Shown here piece after piece: positions 27,778 to 34,767 of a stretch of 64,000 nucleotides of DNA. Made by a program: the position numbers and the translations under genes. A model generated the notes under the pieces. That model was not told the DNA's origin. It saw only the letters and a program-made list of their open reading frames with translations, and did no database searches. Numbering within the stretch: position 1 is the first letter of the stretch; the number at the start of each line of letters is the position of its first letter. The stretch is from sequence record KT184315.1; one strand, written 5' to 3'. This stretch comes from Enterobacteria phage KhF3.

Positions 27778-27941
27778 AGGAGAAACCACAATGTACGTCA
27801 GAGACATACTGTATAAGTCTTCTTATAAAGTATAGCTCTGTAAAAAAGCCCTGTCTAAAAATACTCTTCGGTAGCGAAAGGAAGAATACTTATAGCAGGG
27901 CATTATTATTATTTTAATTGAGAGAGAGTAAAATAACTTGG

Positions 27942-28014
27942 AGAATCCGAAGGGACTCGAACCCTTATAAACCTGTTTTGCAGACAGGAACATAGCCATT
28001 TCTGTCACGGATTC
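27942..28014 (-). tRNA. tRNA-Cys (anticodon GCA)
   Basis: Manual fold: T-arm AAGGG-ACTCGAA-CCCTT (plus view), 7-bp acceptor, anticodon loop CTGCAAA, U73, CCA encoded. Confidence 0.7.
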
Positions 28015-28021
28015 AAATTGG

Positions 28022-28111
28022 AGGAAGATACCAGACTTGAACTGGTACACCGATTTCTCAGCTACTGGCAGTTTAGCAAACTGCTCCCTTACCTTTTAGG
28101 GTTAATCTTCC
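28022..28111 (-). tRNA. tRNA-Ser (anticodon GCT), class II
   Basis: T-arm ACCAG-ACTTGAA-CTGGT, 21-nt variable arm, anticodon loop TTGCTAA, perfect 7-bp acceptor. Confidence 0.7.
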
Positions 28112-28112
28112 A

Positions 28113-28847
28113 TTATTTCTGTAATGCGTTCTTCATTTCTGGTGTTGCAATAGTGTCAATCACACCAGTTTTACAAGCATCATCAAACCAGTCTGGTAAG
28201 ATACCTGCTAAGAACCCATTGATATTCGTTTTAAGGTACTCTGCAATAAGAGCAGCTTCTTCTTCAATCATCTGCACAACTTCATCTGCATAAGCTGTAA
28301 TCTTCGAAATACCTTCATTAATCTTACTAACAGCTTGGTTAGCTAAATCAGAAATAGTATCAAGACCTTTGTCAATAGCATCTTGTAAGTCACTTAATAC
28401 ATCATTAACGACATCTAGTGCACTGTTAATTGTGTCAATAGCTTTTTGACCATATTCTGTAGCAACGCCCATAATACCACTAAACGGTGTACAGCCAACT
28501 TGTTCCCCTGCTGCACCCATAACATTGGAATACCCCTTTGCTACCTGCATACGTGATGAAAACTCATCAATAGACTTTTGACCATAGTCTGTTAAGGTCT
28601 TAGTAGTCGCTGTAGTGCTTGTAAGGCTTGTTGTAAAGCTGTTTAGAAGGACTGTTGTAAGTCCAGCAGCAACAAGTTTCTCCTTCATTGTAGGGTCTGT
28701 TACAGAGCTAATAGAACTTACAAGTGATGTAGAGGCAGCTACGGTTCCACCGAGAACTGCTGCACCAGTAATAAGGGGATTAGAAAACCCTCTACCGGTT
28801 TTTAAGAGATTAAAAATCTCCTTACCTTGTTCTGTCATCTCTTTCAT
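28113..28847 (-). CDS. Hypothetical protein (Ser/Thr-rich) embedded in tRNA region
   Basis: Start moved to internal ATG at 28847 because track start 28910 overlaps tRNA-Phe. Confidence 0.4.
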   Translation of the reverse strand: MKEMTEQGKEIFNLLKTGRGFSNPLITGAAVLGGTVAASTSLVSSISSVTDPTMKEKLVAAGLTTVLLNSFTTSLTSTTATTKTLTDYGQKSIDEFSSRMQVAKGYSNVMGAAGEQVGCTPFSGIMGVATEYGQKAIDTINSALDVVNDVLSDLQDAIDKGLDTISDLANQAVSKINEGISKITAYADEVVQMIEEEAALIAEYLKTNINGFLAGILPDWFDDACKTGVIDTIATPEMKNALQK

Positions 28848-28865
28848 TAAGCACCTTTGTAATTG

Positions 28866-28940
28866 GTAGTCCAGTGGGATTTGAACCCTCTTCTCATGTT
28901 TTTCAGACACGCGCTTTAACCATATAAGCTACTTGGACTA
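28866..28940 (-). tRNA. tRNA-Phe (anticodon GAA)
   Basis: T-loop ATTTGAA (plus view), 7/7 acceptor pairing, anticodon loop CTGAAAA. Confidence 0.65.
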
Positions 28941-28948
28941 TAAATTGG

Positions 28949-29021
28949 GGTGACCTACGGGATTTGAACCCGTATAGACCATGTTCACAGCATGGGTCAT
29001 TACCATTTATGATAAGGCCAC
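28949..29021 (-). tRNA. tRNA-His (anticodon GTG)
   Basis: Perfect T-stem and anticodon stem, loop CTGTGAA, discriminator C73, CCA encoded. Confidence 0.7.
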
Positions 29022-29055
29022 ATTTAAGGACTCTCGTAAGAATCCTTAGAAGTGG

Positions 29056-29128
29056 CAGCGGCATAAGGATTTGAACCTTAATAGGACAGCTTCAGAGACT
29101 GTTGCATTGCCAGTTATGCTATACCGCT
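29056..29128 (-). tRNA. tRNA-Gln (anticodon CTG)
   Basis: T-arm TAAGG-ATTTGAA-CCTTA, anticodon loop CTCTGAA, G73. Confidence 0.65.
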
Positions 29129-29136
29129 AAATTTGG

Positions 29137-29212
29137 TACTCCATATCGGATTCGAACCGATACATAACACAGATTTTAAGTCTGGCCTCTCTGCCAATTG
29201 GAGTAATGGAGC
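29137..29212 (-). tRNA. tRNA with anticodon TAA (Leu codon UUA) but class-I length
   Basis: Perfect T-arm ATCGG-ATTCGAA-CCGAT, A73, CCA encoded; anticodon loop CTTAAAA; 7-nt variable region only. Confidence 0.55.
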
Positions 29213-29217
29213 ATTGG

Positions 29218-29290
29218 CGGGGGATGTTGGAATTGAACCAACTTCTTCGATTTCAAAGACCGAGGTTTTAACCTTGTAAACTAATCCCCT
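29218..29290 (-). tRNA. tRNA-Gln (anticodon TTG)
   Basis: T-arm GTTGG-AATTGAA-CCAAC, anticodon loop CTTTGAA, G73. Confidence 0.65.
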
Positions 29291-29298
29291 TTAAATCT

Positions 29299-29856
29299 TT
29301 ACTTTCTCAGTGGATGAATAAAGAATGCCAACATAACTCTTTCCCTTGAGAATGCTCTTTCTTCTGGGACAACACTTTTTAGTTTCCATCCAATATAAAT
29401 TCTCCAGTAAAACTGTTTACCAAAGACTTTAATTGATGGGATAAAGGCGAATAATCCCCAAGCATTACTGTTCCACATTAGGAGATAACCAGTCTGATTA
29501 TCTTCAGGGTCAGAACTTACGTTGATATTACCTTTCCACTTAGTAACATCTTTTACATCTCTTCCTAATACATGGTAAGAGAAGTTATAAGCTTTGTTTC
29601 TCCAGAGCCATCCGACTCTTTGCATGTAGACGCCTAGTTTACCAATCCATCTAATATTAGCCCATCTTTTAACGTGACCTTCATCACCATCAATTGGGTT
29701 GTCATATGTCTCCATCCATCTGAACCCGAAAGGTAAGTGTCCTTTCTTCTCACTGTAGAATGGAACTACAAAAGGTGCTAAGATAACTGCTAAGATTGCT
29801 GCAAATGGTTCTAACAAAGCTAAGAAAATCCATGAAGCATACTTTAAGTATCTCAT
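29299..29856 (-). CDS. Hypothetical membrane protein
   Basis: 185 aa; N-terminal TM WIFLALLEPFAAILAVILAPFVV; Trp-rich. Confidence 0.4.
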   Translation of the reverse strand: MRYLKYASWIFLALLEPFAAILAVILAPFVVPFYSEKKGHLPFGFRWMETYDNPIDGDEGHVKRWANIRWIGKLGVYMQRVGWLWRNKAYNFSYHVLGRDVKDVTKWKGNINVSSDPEDNQTGYLLMWNSNAWGLFAFIPSIKVFGKQFYWRIYIGWKLKSVVPEERAFSRERVMLAFFIHPLRK

Positions 29857-30095
29857 TGTCTAATCCTCGTAAGGAGGTAAATGTTATTATTCGTTTCTAA
29901 ACCTTCTGGTAAAACTATCTCAAAAATAACACTCTTCAGATGTCTACCACCAAAACAATCACGTATAAATCTTTCTACTCTAGCGGGGTCACATAAGTAT
30001 CCCACTTTTAAGAAAATGTGGTGTTCAACACCAATGACCCTGACAAACTCAATACTCTCACAGTTTTCATGTTCAACTACTGTTAATGTTTGCAT
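29853..30095 (-). CDS. Hypothetical protein
   Basis: 80 aa ORF coupled to downstream gene. Confidence 0.4.
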   Translation of the reverse strand: MQTLTVVEHENCESIEFVRVIGVEHHIFLKVGYLCDPARVERFIRDCFGGRHLKSVIFEIVLPEGLETNNNIYLLTRIRQ

Positions 30096-30115
30096 AGTAT
30101 CACCTTTTTATCTGG

Positions 30116-30188
30116 CGCAGGATAAGGGATTCGAACCCCTATTAACAGCTTCGTAGACTGTTGCTCTTTCCATTTGAACTAATCCTGC
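30116..30188 (-). tRNA. tRNA-Arg (anticodon ACG)
   Basis: 7/7 acceptor pairing, T-loop ATTCGAA, anticodon loop CTACGAA. Confidence 0.7.
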
Positions 30189-30196
30189 AAAATTGG

Positions 30197-30271
30197 TGTT
30201 CCAAGACGGATTCGAACCGTCACTAATACAAGGTTTGAGCTTGCATCCTCTGCCAATTGGGATACTGGAAC
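30197..30271 (-). tRNA. tRNA with anticodon CAA (Leu codon UUG) but class-I length
   Basis: Perfect T-arm GACGG-ATTCGAA-CCGTC, A73, anticodon loop CTCAAAC, 6-nt variable region. Confidence 0.55.
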
Positions 30272-30275
30272 ATGG

Positions 30276-30347
30276 TACTCACTAAAGGACTTGAACCTTT
30301 TTCTTCATCTTGTAAGGGTGATGTTTTACCATATAAACTAAGCGAGT
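30276..30347 (-). tRNA. tRNA-Val (anticodon TAC)
   Basis: T-arm AAAGG-ACTTGAA-CCTTT, anticodon loop CTTACAA, A73. Confidence 0.65.
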
Positions 30348-30443
30348 ATGAAAGAGGTCTGGAGTTGTGCCGCTAACTCAACTCCGTGGAATTTGTTACG
30401 GTCTTCAGTTGACTCAAAGCGGTCTTTCACTTGACCTCTGAAT
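30348..30443 (-). ncRNA. Structured non-tRNA spacer (candidate small RNA or processing element)
   Basis: No T-loop signature; hairpin GGAGTTG-N11-CAACTCC at 30361-30385; long-range GAGGTC/GACCTC; contains ACGGTCTTC motif. Confidence 0.3.
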
Positions 30444-30446
30444 TGG

Positions 30447-30519
30447 TGCTCCCACAAGGACTCGAACCCTGATAAGTTGCTTACAAGGCAACCGTAATAA
30501 CCAATTATACGATAGGAGC
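30447..30519 (-). tRNA. tRNA-Thr (anticodon TGT)
   Basis: Perfect anticodon stem GTTGC/GCAAC, loop CTTGTAA, A73. Confidence 0.7.
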
Positions 30520-30529
30520 ATTAATTTGG

Positions 30530-30601
30530 AGCATCCAGAGGGAATCGAACCCTCAACCTCAGTTTGGAAGACTGTAATTTTCCCGTTTAAACTATGGATG
30601 C
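30530..30601 (-). tRNA. tRNA-Gly (anticodon TCC)
   Basis: Perfect acceptor and T-stem, loop CTTCCAA, U73. Confidence 0.7.
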
Positions 30602-30610
30602 ACTAATTGG

Positions 30611-30683
30611 TGGAGTCACCGAGAATTGAACTCGGTTCCCAAGTTTGCAAAACTCGAATTTTAACCATATAAACTATGACCCC
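30611..30683 (-). tRNA. tRNA-Ala (anticodon TGC)
   Basis: G3:U70 wobble pair in acceptor stem (Ala identity element), A73, anticodon loop TTTGCAA. Confidence 0.75.
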
Positions 30684-30692
30684 ATTGTTTGG

Positions 30693-30765
30693 TACAGGTG
30701 GAGGGAATTGAACCCATCGTCTTACTGATTAAGAGTCAGCCGCATAACCATTTTGCTACACCTGC
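30693..30765 (-). tRNA. tRNA-Lys (anticodon CTT)
   Basis: T-loop AATTGAA with weak 3-bp T-stem, anticodon loop CTCTTAA, A73. Confidence 0.6.
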
Positions 30766-30775
30766 ATTAATTTGG

Positions 30776-30849
30776 TACACCTAGAGAGATTCGAACTCAC
30801 ACTGAGCAGATTCTAAGTCTGCTGCCTCTACCAGTTGGGCTATAGGTGC
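30776..30849 (-). tRNA. tRNA with anticodon TAG (Leu codons CUA/CUG) but class-I length
   Basis: Perfect anticodon stem GCAGA/TCTGC, loop CTTAGAA, A73, 5-nt variable region. Confidence 0.55.
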
Positions 30850-31104
30850 ATTAAATCTTTTTAGAGAACTTCTAAGAACCTAAGCAACAAGGCTCCACAA
30901 CAAGCTGTAATAACCTTAGAAGCCCTCTAAAAAGACCTAAATAGGTCTTTGCATAGTCTTGTTTAATCCGGTGACTAGAACCTTTGGAGAGCTTGATATT
31001 ATCTCTTCTCCGTGACACCTACTAGGTGCTTTGACAGTGTACGACAATACACGAGGGATAAACCGACAATGCGAACAAGCATGGACGGAGTAAATCTTAT
31101 TAGG

Positions 31105-31192
31105 CGGTAAGTAAAGGAGTCGAACCCTCACCGTATCTCTACAGTGGCAACTGTTTTCAAGACAGTTTGGCTACCATTAGCCGCTACCTACC
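31105..31192 (-). tRNA. tRNA-Ser (anticodon TGA), class II
   Basis: Perfect anticodon stem ACTGT/ACAGT, loop CTTGAAA, 20-nt variable arm, G73. Confidence 0.7.
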
Positions 31193-31208
31193 CCTAATAA
31201 GACTTTGG

Positions 31209-31288
31209 CATGGGACGGAGGAGTTGAACCCCTTTGAAACGGTTTTGGAGGCCGTTGCTCATGCCTTAGAGTCTTAACATCGTCCCAT
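31209..31288 (-). tRNA. tRNA-Trp (anticodon CCA) with enlarged D-loop
   Basis: Perfect 7-bp acceptor, G73, anticodon loop CTCCAAA; about 7 extra nt in D region. Confidence 0.6.
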
Positions 31289-31433
31289 ATTATAATTCGA
31301 AGCTTACCCTGTTATCTCAACACTGTCAAGCTTCTTCTCAGATTATTTACATGTTCTGGAAAACATGAGATACAGACCACCTCCCTACAGGAAGACCCGC
31401 TAAGGCCGTCTAAGTAATCTGCTAACTATTTGG

Positions 31434-31507
31434 TACACCCTACAGGATTCGAACCTGTAACTAACGATTTAGAAGACCGTTGCTCTATCCAATTGAACTA
31501 AGGGTGC
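31434..31507 (-). tRNA. tRNA-Arg (anticodon TCT)
   Basis: Perfect T-arm ACAGG-ATTCGAA-CCTGT, anticodon loop CTTCTAA. Confidence 0.7.
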
Positions 31508-31756
31508 ATTATCTTTAAAGACTCTCTTAGAAAGCCCTTAAAGATGCCCACCTTATTAATCATACCGTGGGCGAGTACGCCAAATTCTTTGATGAGGGAT
31601 TGGAAGACCTCACTGGTGTTTAGCCTATCAAGCTACTGCCAGAAAAACATTGTCGTTTGCATTTATTTTAAATTTGCAAAATAGACGCTACGCAACGAAA
31701 ACTAAGGTTACTATAAAGTAGTCACATCTCAATGTCAACAACTTTATTGAAATTGG

Positions 31757-31829
31757 TACTGGTAGGTGGAATCGAACCACCGATGTTCCCTTATCAGGGG
31801 AGTGTTATAACCTTCTTAACTATACCAGC
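31757..31829 (-). tRNA. tRNA-Ile (anticodon GAT)
   Basis: Perfect T-arm GGTGG-AATCGAA-CCACC, anticodon loop CTGATAA, A73. Confidence 0.7.
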
Positions 31830-31833
31830 TTGG

Positions 31834-31907
31834 AGGTTCAGATGGGAATCGAACCCACATTCATAGGGCTTATGAGACCCTTGCATTACCTTATCTGCGA
31901 CTGAACC
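31834..31907 (-). tRNA. tRNA-Met (anticodon CAT)
   Basis: Perfect 7-bp acceptor, anticodon loop CTCATAA, three G-C pairs in anticodon stem. Confidence 0.65.
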
Positions 31908-31988
31908 AGAATAAGTACCCTAGTTAGAGAAACTGTTGAGTGGGTGTTTCCAGCCGCGCAGGTGTTTCTCAGTTAAGGGTGAATTTGG

Positions 31989-32061
31989 TAGAAGTGGAGG
32001 GATTCGAACCCATCGCCTGTCAGATTAAAAGTCTGCCGCATCACCATTCTGCTACACTTCC
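31989..32061 (-). tRNA. tRNA-Lys (anticodon TTT)
   Basis: Anticodon loop CTTTTAA, A73, T-arm similar to the other Lys tRNA. Confidence 0.65.
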
Positions 32062-32065
32062 ATTA

Positions 32066-32209
32066 AATTATCTTTGTAGATAAGCTACCCAGACTTGCTT
32101 AAGGTCTGTAGCGATGTGCCTTTTTGGGTTTAAATCTAGAATTTACCCTTTCACCCTTTGTGGTCGCATACTCACAGGTAAGCTTAATAACTTATCTACA
32201 AAGATAATT
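32066..32209. repeat. 19-bp perfect inverted repeat (AATTATCTTTGTAGATAAG) with arms about 106 nt apart
   Basis: Left arm 32066-32084, right arm 32191-32209 (reverse complement identical). Confidence 0.7.
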
Positions 32210-32234
32210 ACCAGACCGTTGTTTATCATCTTAA

Positions 32235-32307
32235 GTGCTACCATTACACCAACTCGACATCTGCCGAGTGAAGGAATCGAACCTTCGCCTTTTCTTTACC
32301 GGAGAAA
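32235..32307 (-). ncRNA. tRNA-like element with all tRNA arms present in circularly permuted order (anticodon GGT)
   Basis: Minus-strand order: anticodon arm TTTCT-CCGGTAA-AGAAA, 4-nt variable, T-arm GAAGG-TTCGATT-CCTTC, 3' acceptor ACTCGGC, linker AGAT, 5' acceptor GTCGAGT, U8, D-arm GTGT-AATGGTA-GCAC; bracketed by 8-bp helix (plus 32213-32220 with 32331-32338). Confidence 0.4.
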
Positions 32308-32524
32308 TAGATTGTTTAAGTTTTGCTGTAAACGGTCTTCTGTAAAATTGTTGAGCCAGACCAAGTTTTATAAATTTTTTCAAAATTAAATTGGCTTGAA
32401 AATATCATACGTACTTGCTGAATTTGGTCTTCTGCTCCTTTAAAGAATACTCGTAAGAACTCTTTAAGGGAGGGGCTAAAATAGCCCTCTCAAACATCAT
32501 TTTGAAATACTTATTATAATTTGG

Positions 32525-32599
32525 CGGTTACGAAGGGATTTGAACCCTCATCATCTCCCGTGACAGGGGAGTATTTTAACCAGATTAAACTACATAACC
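32525..32599 (-). tRNA. tRNA-Asp (anticodon GTC)
   Basis: Perfect anticodon stem CTCCC/GGGAG, loop CTGTCAC, T-loop ATTTGAA, CCA encoded. Confidence 0.7.
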
Positions 32600-32608
32600 T
32601 TTATTTGG

Positions 32609-32693
32609 TGTGCCGTGTAGGAGTCGAACCTACCGAGTCTCAATGACAAGGGATTTACAGTCCCCACCGCTACCATCTACGGGATAACGACAC
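32609..32693 (-). tRNA. tRNA-Tyr (anticodon GTA), class II
   Basis: Perfect T-arm GTAGG-AGTCGAA-CCTAC, 15-nt variable arm, anticodon loop CTGTAAA, A73. Confidence 0.7.
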
Positions 32694-32705
32694 ATTTAAA
32701 TTTGG

Positions 32706-32779
32706 CGGTTAGTCAGGGATTCGAACCCTGTGCCATTCGCTTAACAGGCGACCGCACATACCTTATGTGCTTCCTAACC
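32706..32779 (-). tRNA. tRNA-Asn (anticodon GTT)
   Basis: Perfect T-arm CAGGG-ATTCGAA-CCCTG, anticodon loop CTGTTAA, G73. Confidence 0.7.
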
Positions 32780-32856
32780 TTAATACATTGCCAGACCGTG
32801 TTTTTTCTTTTATCCGCAAAAAGTATTTTGTTGCTGAATACGGTCTTCTGCAAAAT
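32780..32856 (-). ncRNA. Repeated hairpin spacer element (CAGAAGACCGT ... ACGGTCTGG family)
   Basis: 7-bp stem AGACCGT/ACGGTCT enclosing about 40 nt that begins ATTCAGCAA; same arms recur at 32211/32331, 32356/32426, 32943/33008. Confidence 0.35.
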
Positions 32857-32859
32857 TGG

Positions 32860-32933
32860 AGGCGGGTGCAGGAGTCGAACCTGCCGATACCATGCTAATG
32901 AGACATGTGAGACGCCCTTTCTCTATACCCGCA
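32860..32933 (-). tRNA. tRNA with anticodon CAT (Met- or Ile2-type) and unpaired 1:72
   Basis: Perfect T-arm GCAGG-AGTCGAA-CCTGC, D-stem GAGA/TCTC, anticodon loop CTCATTA, first acceptor pair mismatched. Confidence 0.55.
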
Positions 32934-33027
32934 ATTCTTAATGACCAGACCAAATCTATTCTTTGTCCGATTTACCTTCAGATGAATAAGATTAAGTTTG
33001 CTGTAATTGGTCTTCTGTCAAAACTGG

Positions 33028-33102
33028 CGTTCCAGAAGGGATTTGAACCCTCAGATATCCACTTTGAAAGAGTGGTGACTTTACCATTTTGTCTACTGGA
33101 AC
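33028..33102 (-). tRNA. tRNA-Glu (anticodon TTC)
   Basis: 7/7 acceptor pairing, perfect anticodon stem, loop CTTTCAA, G73. Confidence 0.7.
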
Positions 33103-33112
33103 ATTAATTTGG

Positions 33113-33186
33113 TCTCTGTTGGAGGACTTGAACCTCCGGCCTTACCGCCCCAAACGGAACGCTCTACCAAGCTGAGCTAAACAGAG
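33113..33186 (-). tRNA. tRNA-Pro (anticodon TGG)
   Basis: 7/7 acceptor pairing, perfect T-arm GGAGG-ACTTGAA-CCTCC, loop TTTGGGG, A73. Confidence 0.7.
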
Positions 33187-33304
33187 ATAAACTTTTCAAA
33201 CTCTATGTAACCACTTTAACATTATTTTTTAGTGGTTGTCAAGAACTTTTTTAAAATATTTTTCAGTATCTTAGAAAAGCTCTCATTTCGTTTCTATGTA
33301 GAAC

Positions 33305-33333
33305 ATATTAAAGGGTATTAAACACATTGTCAA
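33305..33333 (-). promoter_or_regulatory. Sigma70-type promoter (TTGACA-17-TAATAT) reading into the tRNA array; embedded in a 9-bp-stem hairpin
   Basis: Minus strand AAGGGTATTGACAATGTGTTTAATACCCTTTAATAT; -35 at 33333-33328, -10 at 33310-33305. Confidence 0.5.
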
Positions 33334-33351: not shown

Positions 33352-34767
33352 TTACCAGATGTAACGGTCAATCATTACTGCTTTGAGCATTACGCTGGTT
33401 GGGTCAAACTTCTCACCACCAAGCAGAGCTTTTAAAGTGGCTGGAGAGAACCCTGATACCATTGCTACACCGTTATCCTTAACAGACACTTCGCAAGTAC
33501 CACTACGGTTTGCTAAGTACCAGAATACCAGTTGTGGCATTTCGTATCCAGCTTTTTTGTACTTACTACGAATTGCTTCAAAGTTTGTACGACCATTTGC
33601 ACCGTCAACCTGATTGAACTCCATATCAGAGAAGATGATAAGCTTACTTGGCATATCTTTCTGAGTCAAGTTGTTTCTCTTACCTGTCTCAAGAATGCGG
33701 TCAAAAGCTGCTTGTAAGTTAGTTGAACCGTATTCAACATGACGCATTACCTGACGATGACGGTTTCGTAAATCACCACTCAGTTCAATGAAGTGAGGGT
33801 TTGTTGAATAAACCATCAACTCATTCTTAAAGCAACCTGTATTACGTTCTGCTACATACAATGCAAGTGAAACACCAATATCAAGAGCAGTAATTGAACC
33901 AAAATTCACCCAAGACATTGAACTTGAAACATCAGACATACATAGAATGTTTTCACCCTCTGCCATCCAGTTTGGTAGTGCTTTCCACTGCTCATTAGCA
34001 ACATCTGCATTACCATACTTAACAGATTTAATCACATCGTATGGGTAAACAGCACCAGCATTAATCTTAGTCTCACCCTTTGATAAGGACTCGATGTAAG
34101 CTTTGTAGCGCTCTCCATCTTTACGGTTAAACAGTTTTTGGTAACGTGCAGCAGCAAGTGAAGGAATCTTGCTGTAATCAATCTTACCAAACTCATTAGC
34201 AGAGATTTTTTGCTCAACTGTATCAGATAGTGCAGACAACAGTGTGCGGTACTCTTTCTCACTCAAGTTGGCAAACTTGCAGAAACGTTTTACAAACTGT
34301 TTGTGGCGTGGTTTTACTCGTGGCAACCACTTAGCTGCTAAACCTGCTGTTGCAGGGTCTAGTAATGCTGCTTCTAAATGTTTGAAGGCATCTGTCTCGA
34401 AACGAGTACCTACGAAGATTTTGAAGTCATCAAAGCGACCAAGTTCTGCAATCTTATCCATAATGCGAAGAACCTGTGTAGGTTCTAAAACTTTATCTTC
34501 AATCGCTTGAAGCAAAACAGTTCTGAAGGCTTTACGCTCACCCATACCTTCTCGTACATCTCGCATATGCAGTAAAATACGAACTGCAACATCAACATCC
34601 TCACGCAAAGCTTTGTAGAACAAGTCTGGTAAGATTTCTACATTGCTACGGCTTGAACCAGCAGCTTTGTAAAAATCTACAAGAGCAGACATTGATGAAG
34701 TATGGTTTACAGCACCATTTTCAGTTCGACCTGCATGAAGGTGCGCATGTTTAAATAACTCGCTCAT
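33352..34767 (-). CDS. vWA-domain protein (MIDAS motif DxSxS) with helical N-terminal domain
   Basis: CMSDVSSSMS (DxSxS) followed by beta-strand LIIFSDMEF; 471 aa. Confidence 0.5.
   Translation of the reverse strand: MSELFKHAHLHAGRTENGAVNHTSSMSALVDFYKAAGSSRSNVEILPDLFYKALREDVDVAVRILLHMRDVREGMGERKAFRTVLLQAIEDKVLEPTQVLRIMDKIAELGRFDDFKIFVGTRFETDAFKHLEAALLDPATAGLAAKWLPRVKPRHKQFVKRFCKFANLSEKEYRTLLSALSDTVEQKISANEFGKIDYSKIPSLAAARYQKLFNRKDGERYKAYIESLSKGETKINAGAVYPYDVIKSVKYGNADVANEQWKALPNWMAEGENILCMSDVSSSMSWVNFGSITALDIGVSLALYVAERNTGCFKNELMVYSTNPHFIELSGDLRNRHRQVMRHVEYGSTNLQAAFDRILETGKRNNLTQKDMPSKLIIFSDMEFNQVDGANGRTNFEAIRSKYKKAGYEMPQLVFWYLANRSGTCEVSVKDNGVAMVSGFSPATLKALLGGEKFDPTSVMLKAVMIDRYIW

Follow-up and report, generated by a model that had tools for sequence, protein, structure and literature searches.

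A probable YrlA-type Y RNA with a circularly permuted tRNA-like domain, and a divergent Ro60-like protein, in the tRNA operon of a FelixO1-like phage

Main finding

The subject of this study is an element on the minus strand of a 64,000-nucleotide stretch of Enterobacteria phage KhF3 (sequence record KT184315.1; this whole 64-kb stretch is called the window, and all coordinates are those of the window). The element, at 32208-32345 within the phage tRNA operon, is a real and conserved circularly permuted tRNA-like structure closed by a helix. All tRNA arms proposed in the initial annotation were found on the minus strand in permuted order, and the acceptor strands pair at 7/7 positions, including one G-U. 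The best explanation, to which we give a probability of roughly 75%, is that the element is a YrlA-type Y RNA: processing of the tRNA operon transcript would set it free, and the Ro60-like protein encoded upstream would bind it via a stem, a bulge and a sequence motif, with the tRNA mimic serving as an effector-recruiting module. The initial annotation had recognized the element correctly and had overlooked both the Ro60-like gene 1 kb upstream and three sibling modules.

Structure of the element

Over the stretch tested, the window is 100% identical to Enterobacteria phage XTG1 (Felixounavirus, a FelixO1-like myovirus). ARAGORN predicts 26 tRNA genes on the minus strand (27939-33186), 24 of them confirmed by Rfam, and this set serves all amino acids except tryptophan and already contains tRNA-Thr(UGU). 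The home of the element is a 460-nt spacer between tRNA-Asp (32522-32599) and tRNA-Lys (31986-32061). From 5' to 3' its parts run as follows: the outer helix P0, an AGA/G internal loop, the inner helix P1, the UUACAGCAA motif, a V hairpin, the T-arm, a closed acceptor hairpin, the D-arm, an A-rich linker, the 3' strand of P1, a single G and the 3' strand of P0. Their positions are listed below.

32208..32345, minus: main element (module 4 below), a putative YrlA-like Y RNA, defined by sequence, minimum free energy (MFE) fold, RNAalifold of six Ounavirinae homologues, and a regular-expression and pairing test
32323..32345, minus: shared stem, 5' half, with P0 UUAC (32345-32342), AGA (32341-32339), P1 AGACCGUU (32338-32331), U, and ACAGCAA (32329-32323)
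32307-32291, minus: V ('anticodon') stem-loop UUUCU-CCGGUAA-AGAAA, 5 bp with a 7-nt loop, from sequence and MFE fold
32290-32287, minus: variable-loop AGGC, from sequence
32235..32286, minus: tRNA-like core from T-arm to D-arm, a match of the strict structural scanner
32286-32270, minus: canonical T-arm GAAGG-UUCGAUU-CCUUC, from sequence
32269-32252, minus: closed acceptor hairpin (AS), loop AGAU
32269-32263, minus: 3' acceptor strand ACUCGGC, from sequence
32262-32259, minus: acceptor loop AGAU, from sequence
32258-32252, minus: 5' acceptor strand GUCGAGU, pairing 7/7 with ACUCGGC (one G-U)
32251 and 32250, minus: U8 and G9, from sequence
32249-32235, minus: canonical D-arm GUGU-AAUGGUA-GCAC, from sequence
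32208..32220, minus: shared stem, 3' half, with P1 AACGGUCU (32220-32213), unpaired G (32212) and P0 GUAA (32211-32208)

The closing helix had been described as a single 8-bp stem. Its flanks do pair (32338-32331 with 32220-32213), but the stem consists of two parts: a 4-bp UUAC/GUAA helix on the outside (32345-32342 with 32211-32208) is followed by an internal loop with AGA opposite G and then by the 8-bp P1, and linkers of 15 and 14 nt lie between P1 and the tRNA body. This exact arrangement was recovered by the single-sequence MFE fold. In addition, the nucleotides of the tRNA tertiary core are present (U8, A14, G18, G19, A21, G53, U54, U55, C56, A58 and C61), and the Levitt pair is noncanonical (A15-C48 in the window, A15-U48 in REP6, and A15-A48 in FelixO1 and SUSP1).

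A complete set of arms and core nucleotides would also be expected of a genuine permuted tRNA-Thr(GGU) gene, whose product would receive CCA, be charged and decode ACC/ACU, either after cuts in the flanks and joining of positions 26 and 27 or as a two-piece tRNA held by the closing stem after RNase P has cut the acceptor loop. Permuted tRNA genes occur in Cyanidioschyzon merolae, some green algae and Thermofilum; their precursors contain a bulge-helix-bulge and are circularised by splicing endonuclease and ligase, giving functional decoding tRNAs. Like the element, they place the 3' half before the 5' half, join the acceptor strands by a short linker and have paired termini. Escherichia coli hosts possess RtcB and a CCA-adding enzyme, the acceptor loop of phage Mordin encodes GCCA, and an automated 131-nt tRNA-Thr_GGT call in REP6 uses the same 3' half. 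Nevertheless, maturation into a decoding tRNA of the red-algal or archaeal kind, as envisaged in the initial annotation, is very improbable. The window element has C33 instead of the near-universal U33, and the 'anticodon' loop is unconserved: it reads CUGGUAA in Sf13 and SUSP1, CGGUAA (6 nt) in FelixO1, and GGGUA (5 nt, without a variable loop) in Mordin and Michonne, while the stem is kept. In relatives, a UACG tetraloop or a loop of 3 nt closes the acceptor, which one locus (L285) lacks altogether, and in the element the acceptor apparently remains closed in the finished RNA. The termini lack a bulge-helix-bulge (3-nt/4-bp/3-nt) and are separated from the tRNA body by the linkers given above, the annotation of the complete XTG1 genome contains neither an RNA ligase nor a splicing endonuclease, and both the A15-C48 Levitt pair and the tRNA-Thr(UGU) already in the phage set count against a decoding role.

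Conservation of the element

ARAGORN did not report the element, and neither did Rfam at the gathering threshold, so that a check with standard tRNA detectors leaves it unannotated; the Rfam tRNA model matches the 3' half alone (22 bits, model positions 7-64). We used a strict structural scanner requiring a T-arm, an abutting perfect hairpin, 2 nt, and a D-arm with GG. It reported a single site in the 64-kb window; over the window and the fetched loci together (2.12 Mb) the sites numbered 80, and there were none in shuffled copies of the 2.12 Mb or in shuffles of a further 1.37 Mb. A covariance model of the core only (R1) gave 57 bits in near-identical Felix-like contigs; below ~40 bits it was unspecific, with junctions of adjacent tRNAs reaching 20-37 bits, and it was replaced by scanners for motif plus stem.

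The check for covariation in related phages, proposed in the initial annotation, was made on a cross-genus Ounavirinae alignment built by homology, with no selection for pairing. The acceptor hairpin has three unrelated sequences across the genera, all of them paired:

Felixounavirus: ACUCGGC / loop AGAU / GUCGAGU
Sf13 and SUSP1: ACACGU / loop UACG / GCGUGU
Mordin and Michonne: ACCCUUC / loop GCCAAACA / GAAGGGU

RNAalifold of the six homologues recovered P1, T, AS and D; in 3/7 AS pairs both partners differ, and neither the T-arm nor the D-arm varies across the Ounavirinae genera compared (at least three). Over a 68-member alignment, U8, A14, a D-loop G, A21, G52, G53, U54, U55, C56, A58 and C61 form an invariant or nearly invariant core.

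These data bear on whether the element is a scrambled pseudogene, that is, a functionless, decaying remnant of a tandem tRNA duplication made of the 3' half of copy 1 and the 5' half of copy 2. According to the standard model, permuted tRNA genes arise when a tRNA is duplicated in tandem and the outer halves are then lost, and the 3' half of the element retains a score of 22 bits with the Rfam tRNA model. Yet the stems are kept by compensatory change across genera: the acceptor sequence has been wholly replaced with perfect pairing next to invariant T- and D-arms, which rules out a decaying pseudogene. Moreover, the flanking stem and motif are common to more than 60 non-redundant examples in unrelated phages, with no chance matches in shuffles, and the remnant explanation therefore has hardly any probability left.

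Three other origins were considered and rejected. Had an insertion split an ordinary tRNA, a matching 5' half should lie upstream, and neither ARAGORN nor Rfam found one; the upstream strand used in the REP6 'tRNA-Thr' call pairs poorly (5/7). Tandem copies of identical tRNAs, as a source of complementary acceptors, do not account for the scanner sites, 72 of 80 of which overlap no predicted tRNA. A two-piece (permuted) tmRNA was dismissed on the identity of acceptor position 3-70, which is C-G in the element and not G3-U70, together with the lack of an ARAGORN tmRNA or an Rfam tmRNA match on the element.

Variants of the acceptor were also noted. Two tRNA-like variants directly upstream of a Ro60-like gene (L285 9833-9870 and L261 3310-3354) have a very short acceptor hairpin or none and still keep the T-arm, D-arm, P1 and motif. 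In four loci (L007 Mordin 524-579, L009 Michonne 495-550, L040 and L042), the acceptor loop consists of a discriminator, CCA and a short leader (GCCAAACA, ACCAGAACAA, UCCAAUAU), unlike the tight tetraloops of Felixounavirus (AGAU) and Sf13/SUSP1 (UACG). By analogy with Mycobacterium smegmatis YrlA, such CCA-bearing loops suggest RNase P cleavage and a free CCA end.

Four modules with a shared stem

A pattern search combined with a pairing test identified four minus-strand modules in the window (0 in 200 shuffles), all within the first ~900 nt of the tRNA operon.

32942..33020, minus: module 1, putative mini Y-like RNA in the Glu/Met spacer; P0 UGAC/GUCA, P1 AGACCAA/UUGGUCU, AGA/G loop, UUACAGCAA, 44-nt interior
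32788..32853, minus: module 2, putative mini Y-like RNA in the Met/Asn spacer; P0 UUGC/GCAA, P1 AGACCGU/ACGGUCU, AGA/G loop, AUUCAGCAA, 31-nt interior
32353..32437, minus: module 3, putative mini Y-like RNA in the Asp/Lys spacer; P0 GAGC/GCUC, P1 AGACCAA/UUGGUCU, AGA/G loop, AUUCAGCAA, 50-nt interior
32345-32208, minus: module 4, the main element, in the Asp/Lys spacer; P0 UUAC/GUAA, P1 AGACCGU/ACGGUCU

All of them fold alike, with a 4-bp P0, an AGA-opposite-G loop, a P1 of 7-8 bp and then WU-WCAGCAA. P0 covaries perfectly among the four copies, P1 occurs in two covarying versions, and the AGA/G loop is invariant. The tRNA mimic is confined to module 4, the interiors of modules 1-3 (31-50 nt) being free of any tRNA-like domain. 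Module 3 is kept in FelixO1, Bas63, SUSP1, Sf13, Mordin and Michonne, and its GAGC/GUUC variant stays paired via G-U. A shared stem-bulge-stem with differing inserts is the pattern expected of a common protein-binding site, which is what we predict it to be.

A Ro60-like protein encoded upstream

A gene on the same strand, directly upstream of tRNA-Pro and the rest of the tRNA cluster, encodes a candidate for the binding protein; 1,006 nt separate its end from the element.

33352-34767, minus: Ro60-like protein gene, 471 aa; Pfam DUF2828 (PF11443) and DUF7788 (PF25043); PHROG 850 'RNA-binding protein'

No canonical Ro60 was detected by tblastn in the window, and no Ounavirinae phage is present among 121 phage records bearing Ro60. 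A small Ro60 hidden Markov model (HMM) gave weak matches to open reading frames (ORFs) of ~480-600 aa beside many elements, and a borderline fragment match in a Felix-like contig led to the present protein; the matched ORFs and the 471-aa ORF of the window all carry DUF2828 and DUF7788 according to Pfam. PHROG 850 matches the window protein end to end, and almost the entire profile also matches a true TROVE Ro60. When 54 family members were compared with six Ro60 proteins by hhalign, a probability of 96.8% (E 2e-10) was obtained over 408 columns covering both domains. The AlphaFold2 model (predicted local distance difference test, pLDDT, 90; predicted template modelling score, pTM, 0.89) displays a predicted HEAT-repeat ring with a C-terminal vWA domain carrying the MIDAS motif, whose residues are invariant (D279-x-S-x-S283, T349, D381). 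The top 10 PDB matches in Foldseek are all Ro60/TROVE structures over the full length (template modelling score up to 0.67; including 2I91, 9KOP, 1YVR, 9NFA, 2NVO and 1YVP), with 9KOP in second place, and the matches after them are isolated vWA domains only. By profile comparison and predicted structure, the window protein is thus a divergent, full-length distant homologue of Ro60.

The protein is 97.7% identical to its orthologue gp130 of phage Bas63 (bas63_0130). A literature search returned no paper on the function of DUF2828; proteins with this domain are recorded in plants and mimivirus-like sequences.

Association of the modules with the protein across phages

We then considered 80 viral loci fetched by the Ro60-like protein alone, independently of the RNA. 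The scanner used on them required [AT]C[ACT]GCAA, pairing and a trailing G, leaving motif positions 1-4 unselected, and what this survey contributes as independent evidence is limited to the flanking positions, to the bias towards the strand of the protein, to how near the modules lie to the gene and to the contrast with shuffles. Stem-plus-motif modules were found in 60 of the 80 loci (107 matches, against 2-12 in shuffles); 105 of the 107 are on the strand of the protein and 77 lie less than 3 kb from it. T-loop-bearing (tRNA-like) versions occur in 20 of the 80 loci, all on the same strand (25/25), with none in shuffles. Some modules abut the gene (17 nt in L261, 35 nt in L298), and they follow the protein in tRNA-free loci as well (L262, L263, L266, L269, L274, L275, L278 and L279).

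The consensus of 83 non-redundant non-Felix modules has a stem base AA / A-G-R…Y-C-U / G followed by N-N-U-U-W-C-A-G-C-A-A, with a median length of 64 nt; the motif profile over the same modules is N N U(48%) U(88%) W C A(82%) G C A A. True Ro60 genes were also encountered. In L148, a TROVE Ro60 lies directly downstream of three tandem elements, one of which has ACAGCAA, and two viral contigs from the pattern scan (L040 and L095) have the canonical layout, in which the RNAs are flanked by a TROVE/vWA Ro60 gene; one Ro60-linked unit in L040 carries an anticodon-arm-like V hairpin. In two unrelated viral contigs, an SPFH/Band-7 gene stands next to a Ro60 gene or tRNA-like element (L040 6597-7589, minus; L034 534-1463, plus), hinting at a recurrent three-part neighbourhood.

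Comparison with known Ro60/Y RNA systems

The initial annotation knew of no described phage example of such a topology. It has in fact been published, phages included, as the tRNA-like domain of YrlA: bacterial and mycobacteriophage YrlA RNAs hold between their termini a tRNA mimic composed of V (less conserved), T, closed acceptor-like stem-loop and D, in this order, and their genes share a strand with Ro60 at a distance of less than 4 kb (Chen et al. 2014 RNA 20:1715, PMC4201824). The order of parts in the Rfam consensus (RF02553) equals that of the element, the V stem-loop of YrlA corresponding to the hairpin at 32307-32291. Both have a terminal stem formed from the 5' and 3' ends, the nucleotides for the tRNA tertiary interactions U8-A14, G18-U55, G19-C56, U54-A58 and G53-C61, and a same-strand gene of the Ro60 family within a few kb. 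Furthermore, YrlB siblings possess the binding stem without the tRNA-like part, as do modules 1-3, so that YrlA and YrlB show the same pattern of a common binding stem with different inserts as the four modules of the window. In M. smegmatis YrlA, RNase P cuts the acceptor loop and CCA is added (PMC4201824); this recalls the G-CCA-AACA loop of Mordin. Characters of YrlA further include binding by Ro60 in vivo, and pseudouridine-55 and dihydrouridine introduced by TruB and DusA.

Several differences set the phage RNA apart. Its candidate partner belongs to the DUF2828/DUF7788 branch, whereas that of YrlA is Pfam TROVE Ro60. The Rfam consensus has a 4-bp 'anticodon stem' straight after the D-arm, while the element has its 15- and 14-nt linkers to the closing stem, and unlike YrlA the element is embedded in a phage tRNA array. 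We conclude that it is best classed with Ro60/Y RNA ribonucleoproteins (RNPs), being distinct in protein branch, RNA signature and tRNA-operon setting.

Two phage systems offer closer comparisons. In Bas63 (Felixounavirus), the element and modules are identical and the protein occupies the same position. Its gp130 was described as structurally Ro60-like, encoded directly upstream of the tRNAs and countering the ppl defence, and its deletion leads to small plaques on ppl hosts (PhageMaP 2024 preprint, PMC11482910). The authors speculated that 'some tRNA genes are possibly Y RNAs' (PMC11482910); the RNAs found here lie in the spacers, not among the annotated tRNAs, and partly under the opposite-strand bas63_0137 and bas63_0138. 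In Thermus phage phiLo, phiRo60 (PDB 9KOP) binds two adjacent phage Y-like RNAs (Yrl1/Yrl2) and host PNPase (NAR 2025, PMC12135203). phiLo and the window share a phage Ro60 homologue and at least two adjacent Y-like RNAs built as stem, bulge and stem. The phiLo RNAs differ in having a CGAA motif, in lying upstream of the gene and in having no reported tRNA-like domain, and the phiLo protein is a recognizable Ro60.

The initial annotation also suggested a substrate for RNA-repair-type processing. In bacteria, Ro60/Y RNA loci sit within RtcB repair operons, and in this respect the suggestion pointed in roughly the right direction.

Evidence against the Y RNA assignment and an alternative without the protein

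A number of results weigh against identifying the element as a YrlA-type Y RNA bound by the upstream protein. On the RNA side, the YrlA hallmark GNCGAAN0-1G, the proposed Ro60 contact, is absent, and the AGA/G loop and UUACAGCAA are found instead; the sole string of this type, GGCGAAGG at the junction of variable loop and T-arm, is unconserved (GGUGAAGG in REP6, GGAGAAGG in SUSP1). RF02553 did not match the element even at E<=10 (500-nt and 841-nt stretches), and the relative L265 reaches 24.7 bits against a cut-off of 69. The MFE z-score against shuffles is modest (-1.4 to -1.5 for module 4, within an overall range of -1.4 to -2.3), which makes thermodynamics alone weak evidence for the element. 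P1 is invariant within Ounavirinae, and its support comes from paralogues and from other phages in which the scanner selected for pairing. On the protein side, the window protein has no match to Pfam TROVE (PF05731), and phmmer/hmmsearch against PDB sequences yielded no Ro60, so the homology rests on profile-profile and fold comparison. In the survey, 20 of the 80 protein loci had no module by this scanner. Finally, gp130 on its own, whether supplied on a plasmid or in the T7 genome, is enough to restore phage growth on ppl (PMC11482910), which means either that the Y-like RNAs are unneeded for the ppl phenotype or that host RNAs can substitute.

The last result is among those that would fit a tRNA-like RNA acting without the Ro60-like protein, the closeness of the protein gene reflecting mere operon layout. 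Such an RNA could, for example, act as a decoy that draws host nucleases directed at tRNAs or enzymes that modify tRNAs, or it could serve the RNase P/RNase E processing or the stability of the polycistronic tRNA transcript. The location inside a 26-tRNA operon agrees with this, as does the G-CCA-AACA acceptor loop of Mordin and Michonne, which resembles a real 3' end plus leader; an acceptor/T minihelix is the minimal recognition unit of RNase P, and the cleavage of M. smegmatis YrlA at its acceptor loop points the same way. This explanation is unlikely. It leaves unexplained why three modules devoid of a tRNA-like part carry the stem, bulge and motif as well, and why modules trail the protein in tRNA-free loci and on the same strand in 105 of 107 cases.

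A possible mechanism

For the favored YrlA-type assignment, the following course may be envisaged. The four modules would be transcribed together with the tRNAs, and RNase P and 3' trimming of the flanking tRNAs would release them from the polycistronic precursor. The Ro60-like protein, encoded immediately upstream, would then bind the shared stem, bulge and motif, while the variable interior would set the contacts of the RNP, a part played in module 4 by the tRNA mimic. If bacterial Ro60/Y RNA/PNPase complexes and phiLo are a guide, the target could be host PNPase or other tRNA-recognizing proteins, for RNA turnover or counter-defence.

The present analysis shows how the element is built and that it is conserved, that the window holds four modules of one architecture, that the protein is homologous to Ro60, and that modules and protein are associated in the genomes of many phages; transcription, processing, protein-RNA binding, the effector and any counter-defence or other biological role are proposed from these data and from related systems.

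Resemblance to Dictyostelium Class I RNAs

Rfam model RF01414 (Class I RNAs) gave full-length sub-threshold matches to module 2 (24.0 bits), module 1 (19.8 bits) and a module from an unrelated contig (23.4 bits), the cut-off being 41.5; module 2 was the sole match in the whole window at E<=10. The consensus of this model is GAUCUC-CUUACAGCAA-variable-GAGAUC-UG. Class I RNAs measure ~60 nt; compensatory changes preserve their terminal stem, the interior is variable, and in an 11-nt motif beside the 5' stem strand U3, C6, C9, A10 and A11 are near-invariant; the invariant 5' G pairs with the C of the 3' CUGU (Kjellin et al. 2021, PMC7919456). They have been reported as unique to Dictyostelia (PMC7919456), and the pull-down with one of them, DdR-21, includes DDB_G0281243, a protein of unknown function.

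When the Class I motif CCUUACAGCAA is set against the phage motif, (G/A)UUUACAGCAA or AUUCAGCAA, all five near-invariant positions match; module 4 reads GUUUACAGCAA at this site. The phage P1 differs in nearly every locus and stays paired, as the Class I stem does, pairing being a property for which the scanner selected (107 matches versus 2-12 in shuffles). Phage stems begin with A-G-R and end with Y-C-U, followed by G (required by the scanner) and then A or U. Both families have a terminal stem of ~6 bp, an A/U-rich variable interior and a similar median length (~60 nt for Class I, 64 nt for the phage modules). They differ in that Class I RNAs come from eukaryotic genes with a DUSE promoter and have the RRM protein Rnp1A/CIBP as their known direct binder, with no known link to a DUF2828 protein, whereas the phage modules lie inside a tRNA operon.

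The likeness may reflect homology, convergence or chance and is a lead, not a finding. A tentative extension, which we think has the odds against it, is that the stem, the AGA/G bulge and UUACAGCAA constitute the recognition element of a separate and very large Ro60 branch (DUF2828/DUF7788; phages, giant viruses and plants), with Class I RNAs as eukaryotic members and a DUF2828-type partner, possibly DDB_G0281243. If true, this would amount to a cross-kingdom RNP family parallel to Ro60/Y RNA, and if the Class I likeness is real, it would provide a mechanistic handle on an RNA class unexplained since its discovery.

Annotation and other features of the locus

The spacer that bears the element is present in 251 phage records, and in none of them is the element correctly annotated. 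Labels such as tRNA-OTHER, pseudogene, Val and His in related records all sit on the adjacent tRNA-Tyr, and the 131-nt tRNA-Thr_GGT of REP6 was built on the 3' half of the element and its poor upstream partner strand. Small hypothetical coding sequences (CDSs) overlie the element in other records (bas63_0137 and bas63_0138 in Bas63, AYO145A_047, and FelixO1 ORF94). These CDSs and the 'tRNA-Thr' overlapping the Y-like RNAs are probably annotation artefacts. A protein-coding reading of the window itself, by a plus-strand 91-aa ORF (32114-32389) and small minus-strand ORFs (e.g. 32231-32383), was judged spurious because conservation tracks RNA pairing and the ORFs cross the T-arm and D-arm sequences.

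Several further features of the region were recorded. Between the Ro60-like gene and tRNA-Pro (33213-33333, minus), there are two sigma-70-like promoter matches (10/12 each) and a terminator-like hairpin; promoter-like sites around this interval are no commoner than in shuffles. A conserved GC-rich hairpin without a U-tract, GAGAGGGCUAUUUUAGCCCCUCCC, lies just past tRNA-Asp (32468-32491, minus). Immediately 3' of the element (32066-32209, minus), a stem of ~28 bp is formed by 32209-32181 with 32095-32066; it shows four compensatory pairs between Felixounavirus and Mooglevirus/Suspvirus, and its interior (~85 nt) varies by genus apart from an invariant AUUCUAGAUU. This structure could be a further RNA partner or a second domain of the transcript of the element. 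Elsewhere, the Rfam model tmRNA_permuted has a sub-threshold full-length match at 31628-31812 (minus; 29.2 bits, cut-off 47, E 0.044) that covers part of tRNA-Ile and the 246-nt Ile/Arg spacer, where ARAGORN reports no tmRNA.

Implications

The modules described here are concrete candidates for the RNA partners of Bas63 gp130, a phage protein with a demonstrated anti-ppl phenotype. They also correct the annotation of a much-used phage genus, in which probably spurious small CDSs and a 131-nt 'tRNA-Thr' have been placed over these RNAs, and in knockout screens such as PhageMaP the genes 'g137' and 'g138' would actually report on Y-like RNAs. Previous searches for Y RNAs missed this branch because they were anchored on TROVE annotation and the GNCGAA motif, and its RNA signature differs. 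If the YrlA-type assignment is correct, Ro60/Y RNA biology would be widened to a branch of thousands of proteins that Pfam files as two domains of unknown function.

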